DNA from: a virus
Virus record (IMG/VR): IMGVR_UViG_3300008954_002609
Span: 32,001-96,000 of that record
Direction: 5' to 3' (one strand)
Length of the DNA: 64,000 bases
Shown: one piece after another, positions 34,160-47,298 of the stretch
How the letters are laid out: every line of letters begins with the position of its first letter
How positions within the stretch are numbered: position 1 is the first letter of the stretch
Notes under the pieces: model-generated
What the model saw: only the letters and a program-made list of their open reading frames with translations
Databases searched by the model: none
Told to the model about the DNA's origin: nothing
Made by a program: the position numbers and the translations under genes

Positions 34160-34996
34160 TTATACAACCGCACGACCCTTGAGGTTTTCCCAATCTTTTT
34201 CTGGTCGTACTTCTAAATTTGTCTGCCATGCTGCCTTGATAACATTCGCATTGACTCCGCATTGGCCGGCGAAGGCAATAAATGCGTTAATGTCCTTTGG
34301 AAAGCAGCTGCCTCCGAATCCCCATTTCCCGTCTGGTCCTGGAACGTTCAAGTGCGAATCCCCAACTCTTCCATCTGCTGCAAATCCAGCAAGTGCCAAG
34401 TCCCAATCCACGTTTGCTTTTTCACAAACTAGCTTCATTTCATTCGCAAAAGCAACCTTGACTGAGAAGAACACATTGTTAAAATATTTTATAAATTCAG
34501 CAGTATTGAAATCTGTCTTCATTATATTACAGTGCTTGAACCTCGTCCTATAAAGTTCCGCGACCTTGCTTGTGTTCTCCGGAGAGCCCCCCAGGACTAT
34601 CCTAGCCTGATTTAAGAAATCATATTTCGCATGTCTCTCTGTTAAGAATTCAGGATTAAAAACAAGATTTAAATTTGGAAACTCATCCGAGAAAGACTGA
34701 GTGGTTCCGGGGACTATTGTGGACTTAATTACCACTACATTATCGTTTCTATCACTAACATTGCTTATATCCCCCAACACCTCTCTCACTATACCAAGAT
34801 TTATGGACCCATCTTTGTTCATCGGGGTTGGCACAGAAACGAAAATTATATCAGACTCATTAACCGTTTCCTCTAGTGAATTCATGCTCCTAAGAGGGTC
34901 CTTATCGTGAACCAATACCGGGATTACGGGAACAAAACCAAAGCCTATTGCTTGCCCCACGAATCCATTTCCAATAATACCTACTGCCTTAATCAT
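34160..34996 (-). CDS. ugd: UDP-glucose/GDP-mannose dehydrogenase family protein (short form)
   Basis: GIIGNGFVG, SVPTP, IKSTIVPGT, FNPEFLTE and catalytic GFGGSCFPKD. Start moved to the ATG at 34996 (GGAG upstream). Confidence 0.9.
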   Translation of the reverse strand: MIKAVGIIGNGFVGQAIGFGFVPVIPVLVHDKDPLRSMNSLEETVNESDIIFVSVPTPMNKDGSINLGIVREVLGDISNVSDRNDNVVVIKSTIVPGTTQSFSDEFPNLNLVFNPEFLTERHAKYDFLNQARIVLGGSPENTSKVAELYRTRFKHCNIMKTDFNTAEFIKYFNNVFFSVKVAFANEMKLVCEKANVDWDLALAGFAADGRVGDSHLNVPGPDGKWGFGGSCFPKDINAFIAFAGQCGVNANVIKAAWQTNLEVRPEKDWENLKGRAVV

Positions 34997-35831
34997 TCGC
35001 AAACTCCAAAAAACACTCTCTTATTCCCTCAGATATCTCCACTTGAGGTCTCCACCCCAAATCAAGCAAAGGCTTCACATTTGCCTTAGTCAACCTGACA
35101 TCTCCTGGGCGCTCTTCAACATAATCAAACTTTAAATCTGGCAGTGTCTCTTTTACCAGCTTCTTCATTTCGTTTAGGGAAATATTGTTTCCAGTTCCGA
35201 CATCGTAAACATTGCCAGAAACAGAATCCATATTGTTCATACAGAAGATGTTCGCAGATACGACATCACTGACATGTGCCATGTCCCTCCTCTGATCTCC
35301 GTCTCCCGTTATATACGGGATCTTCCCATCTTTTATAAACCTTCTCCAATTAGCAACACATGTGGCGTATGGCCCATCAGCGACCTGGTCCACCGAATAT
35401 ACATTAAAGTACCTTAATGCGACGGTATCTACATCATAAAGCCTTTTATATAGCAAGGTTTCGACTTCTCCAACATGTTTGGACAGCGCATACGGGCTTT
35501 CTGGTCCAGATCCGTTACCTACCACGGACGACGAGCTAGAATATACCACTTTAGCTCCTACTTTTTTTGCAAATTCCAAAACAAGAGACGTAGAGTGAAC
35601 GTTGTTGTGCATAACTTCCACTGGGTTCTCAATGCTATAAACTACTCTTGGGATCGCTGCCAAATGGAAGATGACTTCTGGTTTAAAAGCCAGGTGCTTT
35701 TCCTGGAACCCGTCCAAGATGTCTTCTCCCATCTTGAGATCTATTCCCATAACATTGTGACCCAAAGAGTTAAGTTTCCAAAACAAATTCTGACCAATGT
35801 ATCCCATGTGACCAGTCACCATCACGTTCAT
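34989..35831 (-). CDS. NAD-dependent epimerase/dehydratase
   Basis: TGHMGYIG, HLAA, YSSSSSV, YALSK, LRYFNVY and GDGDQRRD motifs. Confidence 0.92.
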   Translation of the reverse strand: MNVMVTGHMGYIGQNLFWKLNSLGHNVMGIDLKMGEDILDGFQEKHLAFKPEVIFHLAAIPRVVYSIENPVEVMHNNVHSTSLVLEFAKKVGAKVVYSSSSSVVGNGSGPESPYALSKHVGEVETLLYKRLYDVDTVALRYFNVYSVDQVADGPYATCVANWRRFIKDGKIPYITGDGDQRRDMAHVSDVVSANIFCMNNMDSVSGNVYDVGTGNNISLNEMKKLVKETLPDLKFDYVEERPGDVRLTKANVKPLLDLGWRPQVEISEGIRECFLEFAND

Positions 35832-36511
35832 TAAATGTACCCCGAAATCTTTAACTGGTTCTCAAAATCTCCCAGTTCTTCATCAGTACAAATATTTTTA
35901 TATGCGTTGACATCCTTGCCAATGCCCTTGTCACTCAACTTTCTTTTTCCATAATCTGAATCATTTCCTTTTCCAGCCCTGGCAAGAACAGAGACATTCC
36001 AATCATAAACCCAGTCTTTTACAAACTCAGGATAATCAGAAAAGTGATTTGCCTTTTGGATACCAAAAACATTGCAAATGTTGTCTTGTACGCAATTTGG
36101 ATTCCTTATAAGGTCCTCGTATTTGACCTCAAGGTCTATAATATCCGAGTATTCGTTCCTTTGTTTCATGGAATCTATCCATCTCTTAGGCTTAACATAA
36201 TTTCCATCTGACAAGATCACGTCTCTTCCGTCCCTTGTCACGTTGATAATTCCGATGTCCTGCTTTCTTATCCAAGACAATTGGTCTTCGAATTCTGGTG
36301 TTTCAGAATTACTCAACACAAAGGGAGGTAGCCTCTTTCCTATCAAAAACCTCTTGTCCGTCTTGATGTTCAAGAACTCACTCAGTGTCATTTCATGACC
36401 GTTAAATCCTTTTCTATAGAGAACGTCAGTGCTTTGAAACGCATAACACATTCTCAACAAAAGAGTCGTCCCACTCTTGGCGCATCCTGTAATAAATATT
36501 CTCTTTGTCAT
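35831..36511 (-). CDS. Sulfotransferase-like P-loop protein
   Basis: IFITGCAKSGTTLL (5'-PSB loop), TRDGRDVILS (3'-PB) and VKYEDLIRNP. Confidence 0.8.
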   Translation of the reverse strand: MTKRIFITGCAKSGTTLLLRMCYAFQSTDVLYRKGFNGHEMTLSEFLNIKTDKRFLIGKRLPPFVLSNSETPEFEDQLSWIRKQDIGIINVTRDGRDVILSDGNYVKPKRWIDSMKQRNEYSDIIDLEVKYEDLIRNPNCVQDNICNVFGIQKANHFSDYPEFVKDWVYDWNVSVLARAGKGNDSDYGKRKLSDKGIGKDVNAYKNICTDEELGDFENQLKISGYI

Positions 36512-36514
36512 CTA

Positions 36515-37132
36515 CTATACTTCCCACGTCTTATATTCTGGTTGCTTGGTTTTATTGGTGTCATGCATTCTGTATCTGTAAAATGGAACTCTCAAATGGT
36601 GAATTCGATATTTGTCGCCCAAGCGTTTTCTTAGTTCCTCTTCCTCCCTATGTCTCATCTTTGGATTATATCCACCTAGCGATAAGAACAGGTCTCTTCG
36701 ATACATTATACCACAGGATATGTTTTCATTTTCAGCATATTTTCTTTCAATGGTGTTCTCATAATCATCCACCATCAAGTAGTCCGAAGATACACAAAAT
36801 GCGTCATGGTTAGACTCTAGATATTTCTTCATAACAAACGACATATCTTTGTTAATATAATCATCGGCGTCGACTCTAAAGAAGAACTGACCTCTGGCAT
36901 TTTCAATTCCTAAGTTAGACGCTACTGCTACTCCGGAATTCTTGTCCGTCTTGAGGAATCTTATGCGATCAGCGAAGGGTCTCAGCATATCTTGCGAGTT
37001 GTCTGTACTACAGTCATCCACCACTATCACCTCAAATCTGACCCTCTCCTGATTAAGACAACTCCTCAAACACCTAGAGACATATTTGCCATAGTTGTAG
37101 TTTGTTATAATTATCGATACGTCAGGTACCAT
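36515..37132 (-). CDS. Glycosyltransferase family 2
   Basis: VSIIITNYNYG, EVIVVDDCSTD, NSGVAVASNLGI and RVDADD motifs. Confidence 0.92.
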   Translation of the reverse strand: MVPDVSIIITNYNYGKYVSRCLRSCLNQERVRFEVIVVDDCSTDNSQDMLRPFADRIRFLKTDKNSGVAVASNLGIENARGQFFFRVDADDYINKDMSFVMKKYLESNHDAFCVSSDYLMVDDYENTIERKYAENENISCGIMYRRDLFLSLGGYNPKMRHREEEELRKRLGDKYRIHHLRVPFYRYRMHDTNKTKQPEYKTWEV

Positions 37133-37845
37133 TATTCTTTCCTCCGATTTAATATTTCGATTTCCTTGATTAGGTTTTTAAACTGTTTAAGAGATCCGTG
37201 ATCAAAAGACCCCAAGTGCCCTCCCTCAAACCTTGATTGTGCAAAAATGTTCTCACTATAATGCTTCTCTAATATGGTAGCACCGCTGAAATATGCTTTC
37301 AATGGGGCGGCGATGCCGACGGAGTGGTCACTATATCCGCGATACCCATATCTCTTAAATTCTTTTGGCATATTTTTCAAGTTATCATCGTGCAAAAAAG
37401 TTGGATACCTGGATACACAAAATAAGTAAGATATCTTCTCACTGTGTCCGAATGGAAATTCACCAATAGCACATTGTCCGGTGGATATGATTGTCGGTTT
37501 ATTCTCTTTTAAGATAGCTTCGCATAAATCTGGATCTTCTTTTACGGTTCTACTTGCTATCTTGTGCCTATCAAATCCGAGGTTCCGCAGCCAATCCAAT
37601 CTCTCTTTATCAAAGGGTGTAGCCATCAGTGGTATACCAAGATTATCACAAAAGTCCTTGAGGGATGCAAGTGTTTGGTAGTCGATGTCCCTGTATTCTC
37701 TTTCAGTGTTTCCAAAAAATGCCACAGAATCCATTAACTGAACTTTCACAACATCTGCTCCTGCGGACCATGCATTTAGTGACATTCTTTTTAGTTCTTC
37801 CAGCGAGCCATGGTGCTGGTTACAAAGATCAACTATTATTTCCAT
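37132..37845 (-). CDS. neuB: NeuB/SpsE-family nonulosonic acid (sialic acid-like) synthase, lacking the C-terminal SAF domain
   Basis: NQHHGS, GADVVKVQ, ATPFD, KIASR, IISTG, CVSRYPT, GYSDHS and ILEKH motifs; 237 aa. Confidence 0.88.
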   Translation of the reverse strand: MEIIVDLCNQHHGSLEELKRMSLNAWSAGADVVKVQLMDSVAFFGNTEREYRDIDYQTLASLKDFCDNLGIPLMATPFDKERLDWLRNLGFDRHKIASRTVKEDPDLCEAILKENKPTIISTGQCAIGEFPFGHSEKISYLFCVSRYPTFLHDDNLKNMPKEFKRYGYRGYSDHSVGIAAPLKAYFSGATILEKHYSENIFAQSRFEGGHLGSFDHGSLKQFKNLIKEIEILNRRKE

Positions 37846-38536
37846 TTAAATACTCCTTCAATAAAATTGGAGTCTTGTATGATATCTCCAACATTCTTCC
37901 ATAATTCATGTCTTTTAATTGATATAGTTTCCCGCCTGGTTCTACGTGATAAGGCTCTACTGAATTATTGATTATATTATACACGTTTTTCTCCAAAATG
38001 TCAAACCCTGTAATGCAAGTTCTCATGAAAATATCTTCTGGTGTGTCAGAGATATCCATCCCTTCTGTTTTAGATTGAGCTATTACCCTACCCTTGTCAA
38101 TTGACGAGTTTATATAGTGAATAGTTGCCCCTATCTCTTCCGGTTTTCCCTCGTAGAGAGCCCAATACGGGCTGTCTACCCCTCTGTGGTGCTGTACTAA
38201 GCCCGTATGTATGTTTATACAGCCTCCGGAAGGTACACTAAAGATGTGCTTTTTGAGTAGAGGGGCACCGAAGACAAAACAAAGGTCAGGAGAAACCTCT
38301 GATATCATATCCTTCATCCTTCTAGAATTTACTTGTTCTGGAGTGCACATAACTAAATTTCCTAGTATCTCGCTACCTCTTGCGTGTCCAAAAAATCTTC
38401 GCTCTGATAGGCAGAATTTCGCATTTCCGGGCTTTTTATCCACTACAATGACCATAGAAAGATCGACATACTTCTGCAATCTAGATATGAACTCCCTGTG
38501 CCTCAGTTGGTTTGATGTTATTGCGATGTGGCTCAT
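37829..38536 (-). CDS. Formyltransferase (N10-formyl-THF dependent)
   Basis: INIHTGLVQHHRG, GATIHYINSSIDKG. Confidence 0.85.
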   Translation of the reverse strand: MSHIAITSNQLRHREFISRLQKYVDLSMVIVVDKKPGNAKFCLSERRFFGHARGSEILGNLVMCTPEQVNSRRMKDMISEVSPDLCFVFGAPLLKKHIFSVPSGGCINIHTGLVQHHRGVDSPYWALYEGKPEEIGATIHYINSSIDKGRVIAQSKTEGMDISDTPEDIFMRTCITGFDILEKNVYNIINNSVEPYHVEPGGKLYQLKDMNYGRMLEISYKTPILLKEYLNGNNS

Positions 38537-39216
38537 AACTTTATTGGGCTTCTCCCCAGGCTCTTAAACGCCTCTCCTCGGGCTTCACCTATTGAATACC
38601 CCCTCACTTTCGTAATTCCATCCAGGTACCTCTCTATTTCATTTAAAATATCGAGCTGAGACATATATACCTTCAACGCTTCCATCTTCAATCCGTATTG
38701 CTCAGTAATATCGACAACGTAATCAGGATCATCAAAAGGATCCAAAATTTCAAAAGACCATATGGCCCCAACAGTGTGTACTCCACCTAACTCCTCCATT
38801 ATGTTTTCCGAAGCTTTCCAGCAGGCTTCTTCTACAATCGCAGAAGTCCTCTTATGATCTCTGTGTTTGCACACTTGATTGTGTGTTATGACCAGGTCTG
38901 GCTTCACCTCTCTTATGATTTTTATAACTTTGTGAAAATTTTGCTTCCTATTAGAGACCTTCTGACAAGGTAGACCGAGGTTGTGAATCTTTTGAATGCC
39001 CAAGATCTTTGCTGCAATAATTGCTTCTTTGTTTCTTGTTTCTACGATTTCAGAACCATCAGTACCTTGTTTAATACCAGTGGAGCCGTCGGTCATAAAA
39101 CAAACTTCTACCCGGCAGCCCCTGTCTGCCCACTTCCTTATGGTGCCGCCGCAGCCAATTGTCTCATCGTCCTGATGTGCTGCGAAAACTAGAACTTTTT
39201 TAGGTATTTTGATCAC
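38533..39216 (-). CDS. PIG-L/LmbE family N-deacetylase
   Basis: AHQDDETIGCGGT, TDG, HRDH and YMSQ motifs. Confidence 0.92.
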   Translation of the reverse strand: MIKIPKKVLVFAAHQDDETIGCGGTIRKWADRGCRVEVCFMTDGSTGIKQGTDGSEIVETRNKEAIIAAKILGIQKIHNLGLPCQKVSNRKQNFHKVIKIIREVKPDLVITHNQVCKHRDHKRTSAIVEEACWKASENIMEELGGVHTVGAIWSFEILDPFDDPDYVVDITEQYGLKMEALKVYMSQLDILNEIERYLDGITKVRGYSIGEARGEAFKSLGRSPIKL

Positions 39217-39829
39217 TTCTTTTCTCTATAAACTTTACATCTTCAATAGTGTGAACGTCATGCACATCGCAAATAAAGGCTCCCGTTTTCACACTCAAAT
39301 CTCTCTGGTGAACGTACCATAGTTTCATTATTCTAAATGCTGCATTCATCATTAAATCTCTGTCTACGCTCATCAACTCATTTCTATCATTAATAATGAA
39401 CGACTCGATTGCATTATCCAATGTTCTTCCTGTAATTTCAGGAGAATTTGCTTGCAGGGAGACGACAGTCTCTGGCTTAAAATGATTTCTCTCTATATAA
39501 GAACAAGCCTCTCTAATTGCCTCCATCTTGTAGACGTGGTCTGCCGCTGTTCTTGGATCCCTGTCGTGGACATTTGCACCATACTTAATTGCTATTTTTT
39601 TTATCTCTTCATCTTCTGTGGTTACCCACACGTCGGTTATATATTCACTGTCCTTTGCTGCCTTTATCGCCCAAGATAACATAGGCTTGCCCCAAATGGG
39701 ATAAATGTTCTTGCGCTTGAGCCTTTTAGACCCTCCCCGTGCAGGTATGATGGCTACTATTCTTTCTTTTTTAGTCTTATTGCTTGCGCCAATCAGGTCA
39801 GATAAGCCCGTCATTAATGACTCTATCAT
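39200..39829 (-). CDS. neuA: Acylneuraminate cytidylyltransferase (NeuA/PseF-like)
   Basis: IVAIIPARGGSKRLKRKN...GKPML, LQANSP, DVHTIED. Start set at the ATGA overlap at 39829. Confidence 0.88.
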   Translation of the reverse strand: MIESLMTGLSDLIGASNKTKKERIVAIIPARGGSKRLKRKNIYPIWGKPMLSWAIKAAKDSEYITDVWVTTEDEEIKKIAIKYGANVHDRDPRTAADHVYKMEAIREACSYIERNHFKPETVVSLQANSPEITGRTLDNAIESFIINDRNELMSVDRDLMMNAAFRIMKLWYVHQRDLSVKTGAFICDVHDVHTIEDVKFIEKRSDQNT

Positions 39830-40416
39830 GGCGGGAACCCTTTCGTGTGATGGGGTTTTCCGTATTTCTTGAGATTTGCCATCCATTTGGCTTTAGGTCT
39901 CAGCACTGCTATACCACCAACCTCTTCAACTAGATCATACCACTCTAAAGCAGCCTTATATCTAGGTCTGTAGTATTCACACAGAAAAACAATTGTGTCT
40001 TTGTGGGAGTACCTTGTAGCCATCTCGCAACATTGCACTCTCGCTCGACCATCGATAATGAAAAAATCATACTTTTTTTTACCAAAATGATCAATAGCCT
40101 TTATATAACTTTTAAACTCTTCGTTCCTATTGTCTAAAAGAATAGAGTGTCCTCTTTCCCAAATATTCCACGGAATATCTGCAGGAGCATAGTAGAGTTT
40201 CACATTCTTTATCTCCTGCTCCTGAATCATGTCTGCAACCTTATCTGCCCACTTGTCGTCGTGTTCTACCGAGTTGTAACTCTTTACAAATTTAGAAAAA
40301 TGAATAGTGCTGCCGCCTGGTCCCCATTCGAACAGTGTTTTGCCTTTTGACAAACGACTTTCAATATAGTCAATCTCTTCCTGATTCATTAGTGGCTTAT
40401 TTTTTATATTTTTCAT
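39826..40416 (-). CDS. Class I SAM-dependent methyltransferase-like protein
   Basis: LFEWGPGGSTIHF, SVEHD, YDFFIIDGRARVQC. Confidence 0.75.
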   Translation of the reverse strand: MKNIKNKPLMNQEEIDYIESRLSKGKTLFEWGPGGSTIHFSKFVKSYNSVEHDDKWADKVADMIQEQEIKNVKLYYAPADIPWNIWERGHSILLDNRNEEFKSYIKAIDHFGKKKYDFFIIDGRARVQCCEMATRYSHKDTIVFLCEYYRPRYKAALEWYDLVEEVGGIAVLRPKAKWMANLKKYGKPHHTKGFPP

Positions 40417-40421
40417 ACTTG

Positions 40422-41432
40422 CTATACTAACACATCAAGTAAATTTTTGCAAGTATCTTTACTGTCGAACAAATAATCTTTTCTTGCTTTTCGGAATTCA
40501 GGATCCAAATCCGTTAAATTTAGGTAGGTAATCGCTGCTGCAAATTCAGCATGAGTGAACTTTTTGTTCATATCAACACAATAACCATACCTATATAGAT
40601 AATCATGAGTCACCCTATAAGGTCTCTTGCTTCCGTTTCTAAATTCTGGCTTTATGTCAAAATTAATTAATGGCACATTGTGCATCACACACTCTTCTAC
40701 AGTTGTTGATCCAAAATTTATTGCTATGTCGCTTATCGATAACAATTCCTGGGTTGTATGAGGGTACCAAGAATCGTCTAAGAAACAATAGTGACCGTTT
40801 GATTTAAGTGCTTGTTTCCAGGTAGAACTAACTGGGTCTTTTCCTCGACTTTTAAACAAAACTGTATAGCCCATCATATCCAAACAGGCCATCAGGTTCG
40901 GAAAGTCTACATGTGCTTGGTCTCTTCCTTTAGGAGATATGAGTGTCGCAAACTTACCGTCTTTCGGCAAAGAGTATTTATTAAGAACACTTGATTTGTC
41001 GATTTCAATATCATATTTTGGTATCCCCAAATAAAGATTTTTATCCGTATGGAGATTATAATAATCTGCTATCGACCGACTAGGCATAAGCACATGATCT
41101 GCAACATCTATATAGTGTTTGTAACTTTCAATGAAGTCTGTTTGATAAGTGCAGACAACCTTCTTTGTATCCTTTGCTTTAGCAACAAAATTTACACCTG
41201 TTTTTTCATTTGAAAACAAGAGACCCTTTGCAGATTTTACATCTGCTATATCCTTAAATAATACGTTGTGATGAATGACAAGTTGCGCCAATACTGATTC
41301 ATACTTGTGAGGACAATTATATTTGTGGGATGGTGCAATGTAAAAAACAGATTGAATACCCCTCTTGTTCCCCTCTATCACTAGTGGCATCCAGTACCTA
41401 AGATGCGTCATTTCCATTAACAAAAAATTCAT
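40422..41432 (-). CDS. GT-B fold protein (CDP-glycerol transferase / sialyltransferase-like)
   Basis: YLGIPKYD and ELLSISDIAINFGSTTVEECVMHNVPLINF resemble the C-terminal GT-B domain of TagF/capsule polymerase/sialyltransferase-like families. Confidence 0.55.
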   Translation of the reverse strand: MNFLLMEMTHLRYWMPLVIEGNKRGIQSVFYIAPSHKYNCPHKYESVLAQLVIHHNVLFKDIADVKSAKGLLFSNEKTGVNFVAKAKDTKKVVCTYQTDFIESYKHYIDVADHVLMPSRSIADYYNLHTDKNLYLGIPKYDIEIDKSSVLNKYSLPKDGKFATLISPKGRDQAHVDFPNLMACLDMMGYTVLFKSRGKDPVSSTWKQALKSNGHYCFLDDSWYPHTTQELLSISDIAINFGSTTVEECVMHNVPLINFDIKPEFRNGSKRPYRVTHDYLYRYGYCVDMNKKFTHAEFAAAITYLNLTDLDPEFRKARKDYLFDSKDTCKNLLDVLV

Positions 41433-42058
41433 TTTTCTATAATCTCCGCCAATACATAAATTCTACCTTTTATCGGATCTTTTAAAACAGAATAGTCACC
41501 AAATTCCAAGCCCGCCTGATTCAACATATCGGTAGTAAATAAATTGTCAGAATGACTCACACTATGTTGCATGTCCATTCCTTCAGGTATCGCTTCCTTA
41601 AAGTGTGGAATTAAATTAGTGCTACCCGCCGGCCAGGACTGCAATAATGTATCTGGACCCAAAGCCACTATATTTCCGGTATTAAAGTCGAACATAACCC
41701 TCTTATTGTTTTGAACAGCATATTTTAGATTCCTTATCAAGCCTGACGATGATTGCACAAGATAGGCGAGCCTTAAACCTAAAACAAGATCATATCCCTT
41801 TATAGCGTTTTCCCATTTGTCGTGGACATCCCACTTGTTATTTATGGGGGGTTCGTCCTCATTCAATATATCATAGAAGTGGTGCTCAAGACCTTCAACT
41901 TGTATTTTTAGATTAATACATGAAAACATATCAGAATATTTCCCAATCTGTTGTTGTCCAAGCCAGGCGACCTTATTTCCTGGTTTTAGATTTTCATTTA
42001 TATAGTCCCCAACCAAATGTGCATATTTGGGTATTATAAAGTGATCCGTCATTCCCAC
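41429..42058 (-). CDS. Hypothetical protein, possibly a degenerate methyltransferase fold
   Basis: KVAWLGQ...FYDI...WDV...YDLVLGLRLAYL has a Rossmann-like strand order. Confidence 0.4.
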   Translation of the reverse strand: MGMTDHFIIPKYAHLVGDYINENLKPGNKVAWLGQQQIGKYSDMFSCINLKIQVEGLEHHFYDILNEDEPPINNKWDVHDKWENAIKGYDLVLGLRLAYLVQSSSGLIRNLKYAVQNNKRVMFDFNTGNIVALGPDTLLQSWPAGSTNLIPHFKEAIPEGMDMQHSVSHSDNLFTTDMLNQAGLEFGDYSVLKDPIKGRIYVLAEIIEK

Positions 42059-42765
42059 TATAAATCCTCCATAAATACAAACTCTATATCGTCTCTGTGC
42101 TGCAACAAAAAATCTATCAGCTCTTTTGTATGATTTTCGTGTAAATAATTTCTATCCCACTCGCAAGCATGATAAACTATGCCGCAGCTCTCTTTAATTT
42201 CCAGTGGGCGGTAAGGGGGAAACACGGTTGAATAATTAGACTTATACTCCTTGTCTTTCCCCTGGTAAGATTCGAGTGCATAGTCAATATCTGACACAGC
42301 AAACAGCTTGAACCCCTCTTCATTTAAAGCGTCCCAAGCTTGCGGTCCCATTCTCCACGCTGGTGGTCTAAATATTGGTTTGAACACTTCAGACAATCCT
42401 GCCTTCTCAACCCTATCCTTCATACTCTGAGCCCTCTTGATGGCATCTTCATAGGAGATGTCCAGAAACTCGTTATTGTCGTTTTCCCACGGAATTCCGT
42501 GATAATATCCATGATAACATATTTCAAAATTAAAAGGGTTCAAGGATTTTAGAGTTTCACAGAAATCCGGGTGCTTCCAAATAACTAGCGGGTCCTTTGT
42601 TTGGACCCCTAATCTCATGGTCCTCCAATAGGCAATCGGCACAAAAAGACTAATCTTGATGTCCGGAAAGGCGGATATCAGCTCCATACACCTGTCCAAA
42701 ACCTTTACAGACGCCATCGGGTGAGGAGAGACATCATCAATACTTATATTAACCCTATACTTCAA
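42058..42765 (-). CDS. Polysaccharide deacetylase (CE4/NodB-like, DUF2334-type)
   Basis: ISIDDVSP, EICYHGYYHG, FRPPAWR and YHACEW motifs. Confidence 0.82.
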   Translation of the reverse strand: MKYRVNISIDDVSPHPMASVKVLDRCMELISAFPDIKISLFVPIAYWRTMRLGVQTKDPLVIWKHPDFCETLKSLNPFNFEICYHGYYHGIPWENDNNEFLDISYEDAIKRAQSMKDRVEKAGLSEVFKPIFRPPAWRMGPQAWDALNEEGFKLFAVSDIDYALESYQGKDKEYKSNYSTVFPPYRPLEIKESCGIVYHACEWDRNYLHENHTKELIDFLLQHRDDIEFVFMEDL

Positions 42766-43663
42766 TTTTTAATTCGTCCATAAAGTCACCTAATAACACG
42801 TCAAACACCTTACGATCTTTGTCGCGCAAATACTCCTCATTGCGATAATAGTCTACCATGTCTTTTCCAAAAAGCTTTTCAAATTTTGTAGAGATCTCTT
42901 TTACATCTGCTTTGCTTTTCCACGAATTCAGGAACGAAGAGTCTTCTTTTCTAATGTAATTGTATTCTCCAGGGCCGAGAACCTCGCCGTGGCGAGGACA
43001 ATGAAGAACACTTTCCTGCCCCCTTCTAATCTTAAGCTCCTTGACCTCCACCTTCTCCGTTCCGCAAACATTACACTTTTCCATAACAGCTAGATCTTCA
43101 TTTTTGATAGTTTTAACACCCAAACAATCATAAATTCTCTGTAACTCAAAATCGGTGCTGTTAAAAAAATGTTCAAAACTCACTATATTATCTCTTTTGC
43201 TGTCAAAATTCTGAGCCAATTCATACAACGATGACATGAAGGTCACCTTAAACCACTCAAAAACCTGATCTTTCGAAATGTTTCTTCCATATCTGCTGTC
43301 TCCGTATTCTTTCCATTTCCTGATCCAAGTGTAATAGAAAGAAACAGGATTTCGAAAAATGTAAAGCACGGGAATTTCCGGATGGAATGCTCTGTGATAG
43401 TTTACCCTCTTGAGTGGCGGTTTGTTTAAAATGACCCATTCACTATTCTTTACATCCTTTTTCGGATGCAATTGCTCAGGGTTCAGATTTGGCAATACCT
43501 TCTTAGATAGGAAATTCTTTAATTCTCTTTTTGAGGTGCCGCCTTGGCTTCGAAATGCGCTCTCCTTGAGTGTCACTATATTTTCGTGCCCTTGAAGCTT
43601 ATGCAAAACATAGTGCGATCCGATTCCGCCGCTGGCAGTTATAAGGGCTGCTATTTTTGGCAA
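42755..43663 (-). CDS. Degenerate sulfotransferase-fold protein with a CxxC...CxxH insertion
   Basis: LITASGGIGSHY...LQGHENI, IFRNPVSFYYTW and VSFEHFF match the sulfotransferase topology; insert CNVCG...CPRHG. Confidence 0.6.
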   Translation of the reverse strand: MPKIAALITASGGIGSHYVLHKLQGHENIVTLKESAFRSQGGTSKRELKNFLSKKVLPNLNPEQLHPKKDVKNSEWVILNKPPLKRVNYHRAFHPEIPVLYIFRNPVSFYYTWIRKWKEYGDSRYGRNISKDQVFEWFKVTFMSSLYELAQNFDSKRDNIVSFEHFFNSTDFELQRIYDCLGVKTIKNEDLAVMEKCNVCGTEKVEVKELKIRRGQESVLHCPRHGEVLGPGEYNYIRKEDSSFLNSWKSKADVKEISTKFEKLFGKDMVDYYRNEEYLRDKDRKVFDVLLGDFMDELKIEV

Positions 43664-46273: not shown

Positions 46274-46335
46274 ACTAATACCTCTCCTTTTCTAAAATTT
46301 CTTGTATATTTGCGCCCACAGCATGAACTATCTTT

Positions 46336-47298
46336 TTATCTTTCAATTAAGCTTTCTCCCACTTTCAAACTCACCCCTGGTGTGCTTGCCCACTCGTCTG
46401 CCCACATCTCGATGCCATCTAGGGAGACTCTTTCCAGCCAAACACACTTAAAGCCTGCAACTTTGACCAACACCCCTTTTCCCTTGACCACTGCACATAT
46501 CAAGCCTGGTGACCCGTGAACCTTACAAATATCTGTAGACGTTTGCCACAGGCTCAGTTTACCAAACCTTGTTTCCACAAATGCTCCTGGGTAGGGGTGA
46601 GTTAGTGCTCTGACATAGTCGTTTATTTTTGTGGCGGACCATGACAAATCTATTTTACCATCTTCTGGAGATCTTTTATAGTATCTTGTTGCCAGCGCCT
46701 TGTCTTGCGGTAGTTTAATCTCAAGTCTATTGGCTATTTTTGGGATCGCCATCCGGACCATATCTACTGCGGTTTGATCTACTTTATGATAAATCGTCCT
46801 AATATTGTCTCTTGGTTCGATAACAAAAGATCGGAACTCTAACACTGCGCCAGTATCAGTCTTCTCTTCCATAATGAATAGACTATTTCCCCAGGGTACC
46901 GGGTTACCGTCACTTTCTAATATTTTCCAGTTAAGCACAGCGGCTCCGCGGCCCACTGGAAGAGGGGATGGGTGAATACCCAAGCAATATCTTTTTGGTA
47001 TTTTCAATATATTGGATTTAAATATTTGAGACCAGCCGCACTGTATTATTACATCCGGATTCTGTTGTCTTATCCACTCTTCTGTCTCTTTATTGTTTAT
47101 ATCTTTTGTGAAAAATGGATCACATATATCTCCCAGACTATCATAGTTTGATTTTGACAACCCCAAGTCAGGATGAAGGTTGACTGCTCCGACAAAATTT
47201 GATTCTTCTTTTGCGCATTGAATAACTTTTCTTGCGAGTGGGGTGCACCCAATGATTAGGGTTCTTAGGTCTGGGATGTTAGGATTTTTGTTGCCCAT
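46336..47298 (-). CDS. Formyltransferase (Fmt/ArnA-like, with C-terminal domain)
   Basis: GIHPSPLPVGRGAA, TDTG, DGKIDL, VRALTHPYPGAF. Confidence 0.88.
   Translation of the reverse strand: MGNKNPNIPDLRTLIIGCTPLARKVIQCAKEESNFVGAVNLHPDLGLSKSNYDSLGDICDPFFTKDINNKETEEWIRQQNPDVIIQCGWSQIFKSNILKIPKRYCLGIHPSPLPVGRGAAVLNWKILESDGNPVPWGNSLFIMEEKTDTGAVLEFRSFVIEPRDNIRTIYHKVDQTAVDMVRMAIPKIANRLEIKLPQDKALATRYYKRSPEDGKIDLSWSATKINDYVRALTHPYPGAFVETRFGKLSLWQTSTDICKVHGSPGLICAVVKGKGVLVKVAGFKCVWLERVSLDGIEMWADEWASTPGVSLKVGESLIER

Follow-up and report, generated by a model that had tools for sequence, protein, structure and literature searches.

Nonulosonic acids rank among the main recognition molecules of microbial surfaces, where the N-acyl group determines which lectins, phages and enzymes recognize the sugar. 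A locus in the IMG/VR virus record IMGVR_UViG_3300008954_002609, from an uncultured marine phage, raises the question of whether a phage can make and edit such a sugar itself. The window analyzed here, a stretch of 64,000 nucleotides (nt) comprising bases 32001-96000 of this 104-kb record (CheckV completeness 37%), carries a compact cassette of genes for a NeuA-like cytidine monophosphate (CMP)-sugar synthetase, a PIG-L N-deacetylase, an N-formyltransferase (FT) and a NeuB-family synthase. The original prediction, made from the letters alone, was that exchange of an acetyl for a formyl group on these enzymes' substrate yields an unusual sialic-acid-like sugar. With moderate confidence, we favor a reading in which the cassette yields a CMP-activated 5-formamido nonulosonate through an acetyl-to-formyl swap, starting from a host-derived N-acetylhexosamine.

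In this scheme, nitrogen would be supplied by a 2-acetamido sugar of the host pool, either of the UDP-N-acetylglucosamine (UDP-GlcNAc) or UDP-N-acetylmannosamine (UDP-ManNAc) type or a host intermediate of legionaminic acid (Leg) or pseudaminic acid (Pse) synthesis. PIG-L would remove the inherited N-acetyl group, acting either on the hexosamine while it is nucleotide-linked or on the CMP-sugar, and FT would re-acylate the free amine using N10-formyl-tetrahydrofolate. NeuB, which is of a type lacking the SAF domain, would condense the aldose with phosphoenolpyruvate (PEP), and the NeuA-like enzyme would activate the product with cytidine triphosphate (CTP). A GT-B-fold protein and/or a small GT2 glycosyltransferase, both encoded beside the cassette, would transfer the sugar to a glycan that is built by the surrounding 30-kb island and may be further decorated with methyl, sulfate or carbamoyl groups. 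We infer the edited sugar, the swap step, the order of steps, every substrate, the nine-carbon product and the glycan target, which may be the virion or the host envelope.

Cassette genes, their inheritance and their fusions

All four cassette genes lie on the minus strand as intact open reading frames (ORFs). Domains were called with Pfam, and subfamilies were tested against NCBIfam equivalog cut-offs, which none of the four proteins attains. The NeuA-like synthetase (39200-39829, about 209 amino acids (aa); CTP_transf_3, PF02348, 83.4 bits) overlaps the PIG-L/LmbE-family zinc N-deacetylase (38533-39216, 227 aa; PIG-L, PF02585, 108.5 bits) by 17 nt. The deacetylase overlaps the single-domain FT (37829-38536, 235 aa; Formyl_trans_N, PF00551, 56.1 bits) by 4 nt, and FT overlaps the NeuB-family synthase (37132-37845, 237 aa) by a further 17 nt, so that the expected order, with a deacetylase and a formyltransferase between NeuA and NeuB and all genes overlapping, is borne out. 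NeuB in turn shares 1 nt (TAATG) with the small GT2 glycosyltransferase (36515-37132, minus strand, 205 aa; Glycos_transf_2, 108.8 bits). The longest NeuA ORF extends to 39886, but its orthologues begin at 39829, where an ATG overlaps the stop codon of the upstream ORF by 4 nt; the start is likely at 39829.

NeuA carries the N-terminal CTP-binding motif (PARxxSKR type) as IIPARGGSKRLKRKN. Its best NCBIfam match is PseF (TIGR03584; 97.1 bits, below the cut-off of 205.7), which aligns over only the first 132 profile positions. Among solved structures, NeuA lies nearest to CMP-sialic acid synthetases (E 1e-17 to 3e-22), with KdsB matching much less well (5e-7). In PIG-L, H14, D16, D17 and H118, D120, H121, belonging to AHQDDE and HRDH motifs, are invariant in 6 orthologues. 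Its highest subfamily score is to BshB1 (133.8 bits, cut-off 182.5), no characterized subfamily (BshB1, MshB or Mca) being reached, and the solved structures most similar to it are those of BC1534/BshB and diacetylchitobiose deacetylase. The FT catalytic triad N108/H110/D147 is invariant among orthologues, and the matches of its profile in the PDB include the sugar N-formyltransferases VioF, WlaRD, ArnA and PseJ (E 7e-9 for PseJ). Promoter and terminator scans of the region gave background-level signals, with the exception of one perfect 12/12 sigma-70-like site (TTGACA, 17 nt, TATAAT) at 38004-37976 on the minus strand, within the FT gene and about 130 nt before the NeuB start.

Related loci were found by scanning IMG/VR with NeuB and then with FT, which recovered another 16 contigs, the longest of 193 kb, in three arrangements. 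Arrangement A, present in the window and 10 other contigs, comprises the GT-B protein, NeuA, PIG-L, FT, NeuB and GT2, usually followed by a sulfotransferase-like protein, a short-chain dehydrogenase/reductase (SDR) and a short nucleoside diphosphate (NDP)-sugar dehydrogenase. Its proteins show 40-81% amino-acid identity across these 10 contigs, and because the same order recurs in all of them, the arrangement is not due to chance. In arrangement B (4 contigs), the GT-B protein and NeuA are followed by a variable slot, occupied by a PhyH dioxygenase, by two methyltransferases or not at all, and then by a short NeuB of a second type, PIG-L, FT, a 280-aa GT2, an AsnB-type amidotransferase and the 205-aa GT2. 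This second type of NeuB shares 33% identity with that of the window and carries an IIAE motif. Arrangement C (2 contigs, L005 and L006) resembles A, but with one FkbM methyltransferase in place of PIG-L and FT. Across the related loci, the GT-B protein is always upstream of NeuA, the 205-aa GT2 follows NeuB in every phage locus of arrangement A, and the sulfotransferase-like protein after GT2 (35831-36511 in the window, minus strand, 226 aa; Sulfotransfer_3, E 2e-7; Sulfotransfer_1, E 1e-5) is kept in most. Between NeuA and NeuB, individual contigs hold a PhyH-type dioxygenase (L109:3383-4582), a Methyltransf_24 protein with an FkbM methyltransferase (L112:3272-4619) or an FkbM methyltransferase alone (L005:5229-5894).

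In the loci of these arrangements that carry them, PIG-L and FT are always adjacent, in the same order and within the NeuA/NeuB locus, and in L005 and L006 they are lost jointly. These comparisons support the view that the pair behaves as one inherited unit. When 1.84 billion representatives were searched with a profile built from the phage FT, 63 clusters of the subfamily emerged at E<=1e-30, most of them stand-alone proteins 215-270 aa long. One protein (P0209) is an in-frame fusion of FT to a canonical NeuB starting IIAEIGMNHEG, and another (P0248) joins FT to a CE4 deacetylase. Both fusions fit, and lend support to, deacetylation followed by formylation within a nonulosonate pathway.

Other fusions and comparisons weigh against a formylated nonulosonate and point to a different division of labor, in which two sugars enter one glycan. 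PIG-L and FT would here edit a hexosamine (UDP-GlcNAc to UDP-glucosamine (UDP-GlcN) to its N-formyl derivative (UDP-GlcNFo), or a GlcNAc glycoside after transfer), a GT2-type enzyme would handle the product, and NeuB and NeuA would make a separate ulosonic acid, possibly an amino-free one of the Kdn or Kdo kind. In P0121, FT is joined to a GT2 half that shares 52% identity with the GT2 located after FT in arrangement B, and relatives of PIG-L (31-33% identity) also exist as fusions to GT2s. These fusions keep alive the possibility that the formylated sugar may be a hexosamine passed to GT2. Characterized PIG-L enzymes, among them the nearest to the phage protein, deacetylate GlcNAc glycosides, which by analogy would fit hexosamine formylation, and all solved sugar formyltransferases act on NDP-hexoses. 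Arrangement B places the pair after NeuB, adjoining GT2; because this is so in 4 related contigs, the position of PIG-L and FT between NeuA and NeuB is weaker evidence for a shared pathway. In a synthase without the SAF domain and its Arg314, moreover, the usual contact with the N-acetyl group is gone (PMC8208679).

This division of labor is the main rival to a formamido nonulosonate, but we consider it unlikely. FT is fused to NeuB as well as to GT2 (P0209), and the GT2 linked to FT has no orthologue in the window. The contigs L005 and L006 lost PIG-L and FT but no glycosyltransferase, and this fits the modification of a residue produced in any case better than a dedicated branch of donor and transferase.

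A short NeuB and the nature of its product

Between its flanking stop codons, the window NeuB can be no longer than 237 aa; it begins MEIIVDLCNQHHG and has no SAF domain match. It is thus as short as had been proposed, and its start deviates, as also noted then, from the usual IIAExxxNHxG, with Asp at the position of Glu25. The NeuB TIM-barrel family (PF03102) matches residues 25-230 with 116.4 bits, against a cut-off of 22.1. Scores to both equivalogs are below their cut-offs (NeuB_NnaB, TIGR03569, 109 versus 399.65 bits; PseI, TIGR03586, 96.8 versus 340.25 bits). The best solved match is a 290-aa SAF-less protein of Leptospira (6ncs; 96.9 bits), which was deposited as a sialic acid synthetase.

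Residues were numbered by alignment to N. meningitidis NeuB (1xuu). In this numbering, K53, Q55, T110, F112, K129, S132, S154, Y186, S213, H215, E234 and H236 are retained, so that the metal ligands His215 and His236, the PEP-binding Lys53, Lys129, Ser132, Ser154 and Ser213, and Glu234 are all present. In the numbering of the window protein, K34, K95, S98, S121, S172, H174, E193 and H195, which align to these residues, are invariant in 16 sequences. With the PEP- and metal-binding positions preserved, a condensation that depends on PEP and metal is likely, and the window NeuB is probably an active PEP-condensing enzyme. Judged by the same alignment, the aldose-binding side of its active site is different from that of N. 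meningitidis NeuB, with Asn184 replaced by Ser.

It is on this side that the synthase speaks against a conventional sialic acid substrate. The catalytic roles of the NeuB glutamates have been described, as has the contact of Arg314 in the SAF domain with the N-acetyl group (PMC8208679). The proposed catalytic Glu25 aligns to an invariant Asp6, the proposed catalytic Glu134 is Thr100 in the window protein (Thr, Ser or Leu across the clade), and the SAF domain with Arg314 is missing. A maximum-likelihood tree of 95 sequences, a comparison with the Neu/Leg and Pse clades that the original prediction had suggested, places 15 phage and metagenome NeuBs in one clade (SH-aLRT 100), which joins 9 short bacterial NeuBs (100). 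This short-NeuB group is split from all 70 SAF-bearing NeuBs in the tree, a side on which spot checks found both PseI and NeuB_NnaB equivalogs. More than 100 relatives (90% identity clusters) are 230-245 aa long, many of them from Tara and other marine assemblies, and ESM Atlas clusters of the short type are 60-93% viral. In 185,579 species genomes, the nearest cellular relatives reach no more than 28-38% identity. The window NeuB therefore belongs to a SAF-less clade of mostly viral members that stands apart from the Neu/Leg and Pse synthases. Given this position, the lack of SAF and Arg314 and the changes at Glu25 and Glu134, its substrate may not be an N-acyl-mannosamine, and because it falls outside the Neu/Leg and Pse clades, we infer rather than observe nine carbons in the product.

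The gene neighborhoods of the short bacterial NeuBs bear on the same question. A homologue of the 205-aa GT2 of the window (27-40% identity) adjoins six of the nine; in L026, GT2 forms one protein with a weak CTP_transf_3-like domain, with a CTP_transf_3 gene nearby, and the loci L021 and L027 have long GT2 ORFs. No Leg or Pse genes are among the neighbors, which are AsnB-type amidotransferases, often close, and oxidoreductases of the GFO/IDH/MocA type. These neighborhoods lead to the conclusion that the ancestral module appears to be short NeuB, GT2 and a cytidylyltransferase, and the PIG-L/FT pair appears, from the genes compared, to be an addition seen in phages. Among the 80 nearest bacterial NeuB loci, profile (HMM) searches found FT in 6, PIG-L in 3 and both together in 0, which counts against the favored reading. 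A set of AsnB-type amidotransferase, short NeuB, GT2 and CTP_transf_3 recurs in L021, L022, L026 and L027. A GFO/IDH/MocA oxidoreductase is also held by L022 and L025, and the L025 set adjoins a Wzt ABC-transporter gene. We know of no characterized product for this bacterial set.

These features raise the possibility that short NeuB, GT2 and the cytidylyltransferase together make a non-classical product, from another aldose or on a glycoside-bound acceptor, in which case 'sialic-acid-like' would be a misnomer. We regard this as improbable, and as ranking below the hexosamine alternative. The separate NeuB clade with its SH-aLRT of 100, the change of two of the three proposed catalytic glutamates (PMC8208679), the linkage of short NeuB and GT2 in bacteria and phages alike (including the L026 fusion and the long GT2 ORFs of L021 and L027) and bacterial neighbors of the AsnB and GFO/IDH/MocA types without Leg or Pse genes would all be explained by it. 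Yet the PEP- and metal-binding residues of NeuB are intact, NeuA is nearest to CMP-sialate synthetases, and the closest solved relative, 6ncs, carries the name of a sialic acid synthetase. SAF-less NeuBs, furthermore, account for about 30% of the nonulosonate synthase matches in UniProt, as the uncharacterized group I of PMC8208679.

Supply of the amino sugar and the surrounding island

Generic SDR matches aside, no DegT/PseC/LegC, NeuC or PseB/LegB-type gene was found across the whole 104-kb contig, so that the absence first noticed in the window holds for the entire record. In five related phage records, one of them rated 100% complete, the DegT aminotransferase family (PF01041) gave no match and the PseB/LegB family (PF02719) gave only weak generic SDR matches; each of the five holds one NeuB. 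Since no aminotransferase is present even in the complete relative, a free amine could arise only via deacetylation. The lack of both an aminotransferase and a PseB/LegB-type gene likewise means that these phages cannot themselves make a 2,4-diamino hexose. If the sugar contains nitrogen, then, this nitrogen arrives in the N-acetyl group of a host hexosamine, and a formamido group could form only by deacetylation and then formylation. This constitutes the strongest logical support for the acetyl-to-formyl swap.

The supply of a free aldose for NeuB counts against the favored reading. A search of the related phage records for NanE, which would offer a route to N-acetylmannosamine (ManNAc)-6-phosphate, gave no match above the cut-off. 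The relatives G001-G003 carry an Epimerase_2 gene (PF02350; 357-362 aa) in the island, between a second formyltransferase and a methyltransferase, whose product passes the equivalog for non-hydrolyzing WecB (308 bits, cut-off 210) and fails that for NeuC (74.5 versus 235.9). In its place, the window has only a 23-codon micro-ORF at 46275-46346 on the minus strand, LKDKKIVHAVGA followed by NIQEILEKERY and a stop, which joins the first ~12 and the last ~11 codons of the gene in frame. By this match to the gene ends of its relatives, the WecB-type UDP-GlcNAc 2-epimerase gene is deleted in the window phage. No enzyme that releases a free ManNAc-type aldose was thus found, the epimerase of the relatives being non-hydrolyzing and deleted in the window, and NanE giving no match above the cut-off.

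The same remnant might suggest that the cassette itself is decaying in the window phage. This we hold to be very improbable. The deletion at 46275-46346, where relatives keep the gene, is what speaks for decay, but all four cassette ORFs are intact, their conserved catalytic residues are all present, and another relative without WecB (G004) still keeps the cassette. The epimerase, as a non-hydrolyzing enzyme, may moreover serve another branch.

The GT-B-fold protein upstream of NeuA (40422-41432, minus strand, 336 aa), which has no Pfam or NCBIfam match, offers a candidate for the missing step. In a fold search independent of Foldseek, its AlphaFold2 model (pLDDT 88) matched UDP-GlcNAc 2-epimerases including NeuC first (Z 20.8-19.9), then TagF/TarL (Z 19.3-18.7) and then GT1. 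Enzymes of GT1 and GT4 are also among its closest folds, and TagF and GT1 lie within 2 Z units of the epimerases. An hhalign comparison with the phage WecB gave a probability of 0.1%, and by eye the segment with the epimerase catalytic Glu residues appears to be missing. From its model, the protein may be a transferase or a NeuC replacement, and it is a candidate only for either role.

A bolder form of the favored reading follows if the cassette and this protein are taken together. The phages would make a mono-amino 5-N-formyl nonulosonate ('Neu5Fo'-type) from host UDP-HexNAc alone, via the SAF-less Asp-type NeuB, the short NeuA, the PIG-L/FT pair and the GT-B protein, the last acting as a replacement for NeuC or as a new CMP-sugar transferase. 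The sugar would then coat the virion or re-label the host surface. We regard this fuller scheme as doubtful, more so than either the hexosamine or the non-classical alternative. To our knowledge, no 'Neu5Fo'-type sialic acid has been reported in nature.

Around the cassette, sugar genes form an island that spans about 30 kb (roughly 33-62 kb of the window) and lies directly upstream, in the sense of transcription, of the structural genes. Nearly all window genes are on the minus strand. A baseplate-wedge protein, PhoH and ORFs of 3157 and 3590 aa identify the source as a large tailed phage, whose baseplate protein is a distant relative (about 32% identity) of its counterparts in Microcystis phage Mel-JY01 and Flavobacterium 'immuto' phages. 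Cellular contamination was considered and rejected, as the baseplate, PhoH and giant structural genes share strand and contig with the cassette. The cassette DNA had no match in 50,697 phage records, and a search of phage records with the NeuB protein gave only two distant matches of 24-28% identity; this NeuB is therefore in no cultured phage.

Other genes of the island add to its chemistry. A second formyltransferase (46336-47298; Formyl_trans_N and C domain, ArnA-N-like) and a protein of the DUF2334 deacetylase fold (42058-42765) give the island two possible deacetylase/formyltransferase pairs and no aminotransferase. The NDP-sugar dehydrogenase at 34160-35002 is only 280 aa long and matches profile positions 61-295 of 413, without the first Rossmann strand-helix and without the entire UDP-binding domain. 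It is 53-83% identical across relatives despite this truncated match, and it overlaps the preceding 280-aa SDR. A 196-aa ORF at 39826-40416, between the GT-B gene and NeuA, has neither a family match nor a tblastn counterpart in related loci; in some of these, a Methyltransf_24-like gene lies at about this place. By eye only, its EWGPGGST motif resembles motif I of S-adenosylmethionine (SAM) methyltransferases. Two sulfotransferase-like genes lie in the island, at 35831-36511 and 42755-43663, and no gene for synthesis of 3'-phosphoadenosine-5'-phosphosulfate (PAPS) was seen in the window.

Significance and comparison with known systems

The proposal of an acetyl-to-formyl swap on a sialic-acid-like sugar thus holds in part. 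In its favor are the inheritance of the pair as a unit, the invariant catalytic residues, the FT-NeuB and FT-deacetylase fusions, the lack of an aminotransferase and a precedent in Kuenenia discussed below. The identity of the sugar stands less firmly, as formyl may sit on a hexosamine and the nine-carbon product is putative. If the favored reading is true, ocean phages produce and modify sialic-acid-like sugars of their own instead of using borrowed ones, by a route that skips the textbook early steps, swaps N-acetyl for N-formyl and relies on a mostly viral NeuB clade. It would also provide a compact deacetylase and formyltransferase set for making N-formyl sialic acid analogues. By analogy, the arrangements suggest a locus that diversifies like an O-antigen locus. 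Relatives swap methyltransferases, a dioxygenase, amidotransferases and sulfotransferases in and out, as if a surface glycan were under diversifying selection, and this variability makes the phage family a natural experiment in glycan tailoring.

In the collection searched, no paper describes a nonulosonate pathway encoded by a tailed phage, and the nearest parallels are cellular. 5-N-formyl-legionaminic acid also decorates a virus, the haloarchaeal HRPV-1. Halorubrum sp. PV6, which makes this sugar, has a predicted formyltransferase gene co-transcribed with legI and legF (PMC6137143). A formyltransferase in the cluster and a 5-N-formyl product are shared with the present proposal; however, there the host makes the sugar with a full LegB/C/G/H set, whereas here a virus carries the genes and the early steps are missing.

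In the Leg-type cluster of Candidatus Kuenenia stuttgartiensis, a deacetylase and a formyltransferase have been tied to CMP-nonulosonates with one formyl group and one free amine (SugarBase preprint, bioRxiv 10.64898/2026.04.20.719630). Compared by description only, both systems have the genes for a deacetylase and a formyltransferase grouped with those for NeuB and a CMP-synthetase, and the detection of formyl at the CMP-sugar stage in Kuenenia implies a like logic of acetyl removal and formyl addition. Kuenenia has LegB, LegC and LegG and makes a diamino sugar, whereas the phage family is without an aminotransferase, a 4,6-dehydratase, NeuC or LegG. The phage NeuB, in addition, is SAF-less and of another clade, and the cassette is borne by a virus.

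PseJ formylates an amine that comes from the PseC aminotransferase, and hence needs no deacetylase. Its product is Pse5Ac7Fo (PMC11040635; PDB 6ci2/6ci4). PseJ is a profile match of the phage FT, and like it is a Formyl_trans_N enzyme; it formylates a nonulosonate nitrogen. In contrast, the phage pairs its FT with a PIG-L deacetylase and has no aminotransferase. The SAF-less NeuBs of group I (PMC8208679), and Leptospira 6ncs, share with the phage synthase a TIM-barrel NeuB domain standing alone, but the phage clade has Asp for Glu25 and Thr or Ser for Glu134 and is mostly viral.

The ArnA/ArnC/ArnD system for the aminoarabinose of lipid A likewise combines a formyltransferase and a GT2 transferase with a deacetylase-fold enzyme that edits an N-acyl group, a pattern that the FT-GT2 fusion P0121 fits. 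The phage order would be reversed, with deacetylation before formylation, and unlike that system the phage has no ArnB aminotransferase and has a NeuA/NeuB pair. Across these comparisons, the chemistry and the editing logic are known; what is new is that they are virus-borne, dispense with the canonical early steps and are built on an uncharacterized viral clade of NeuB.

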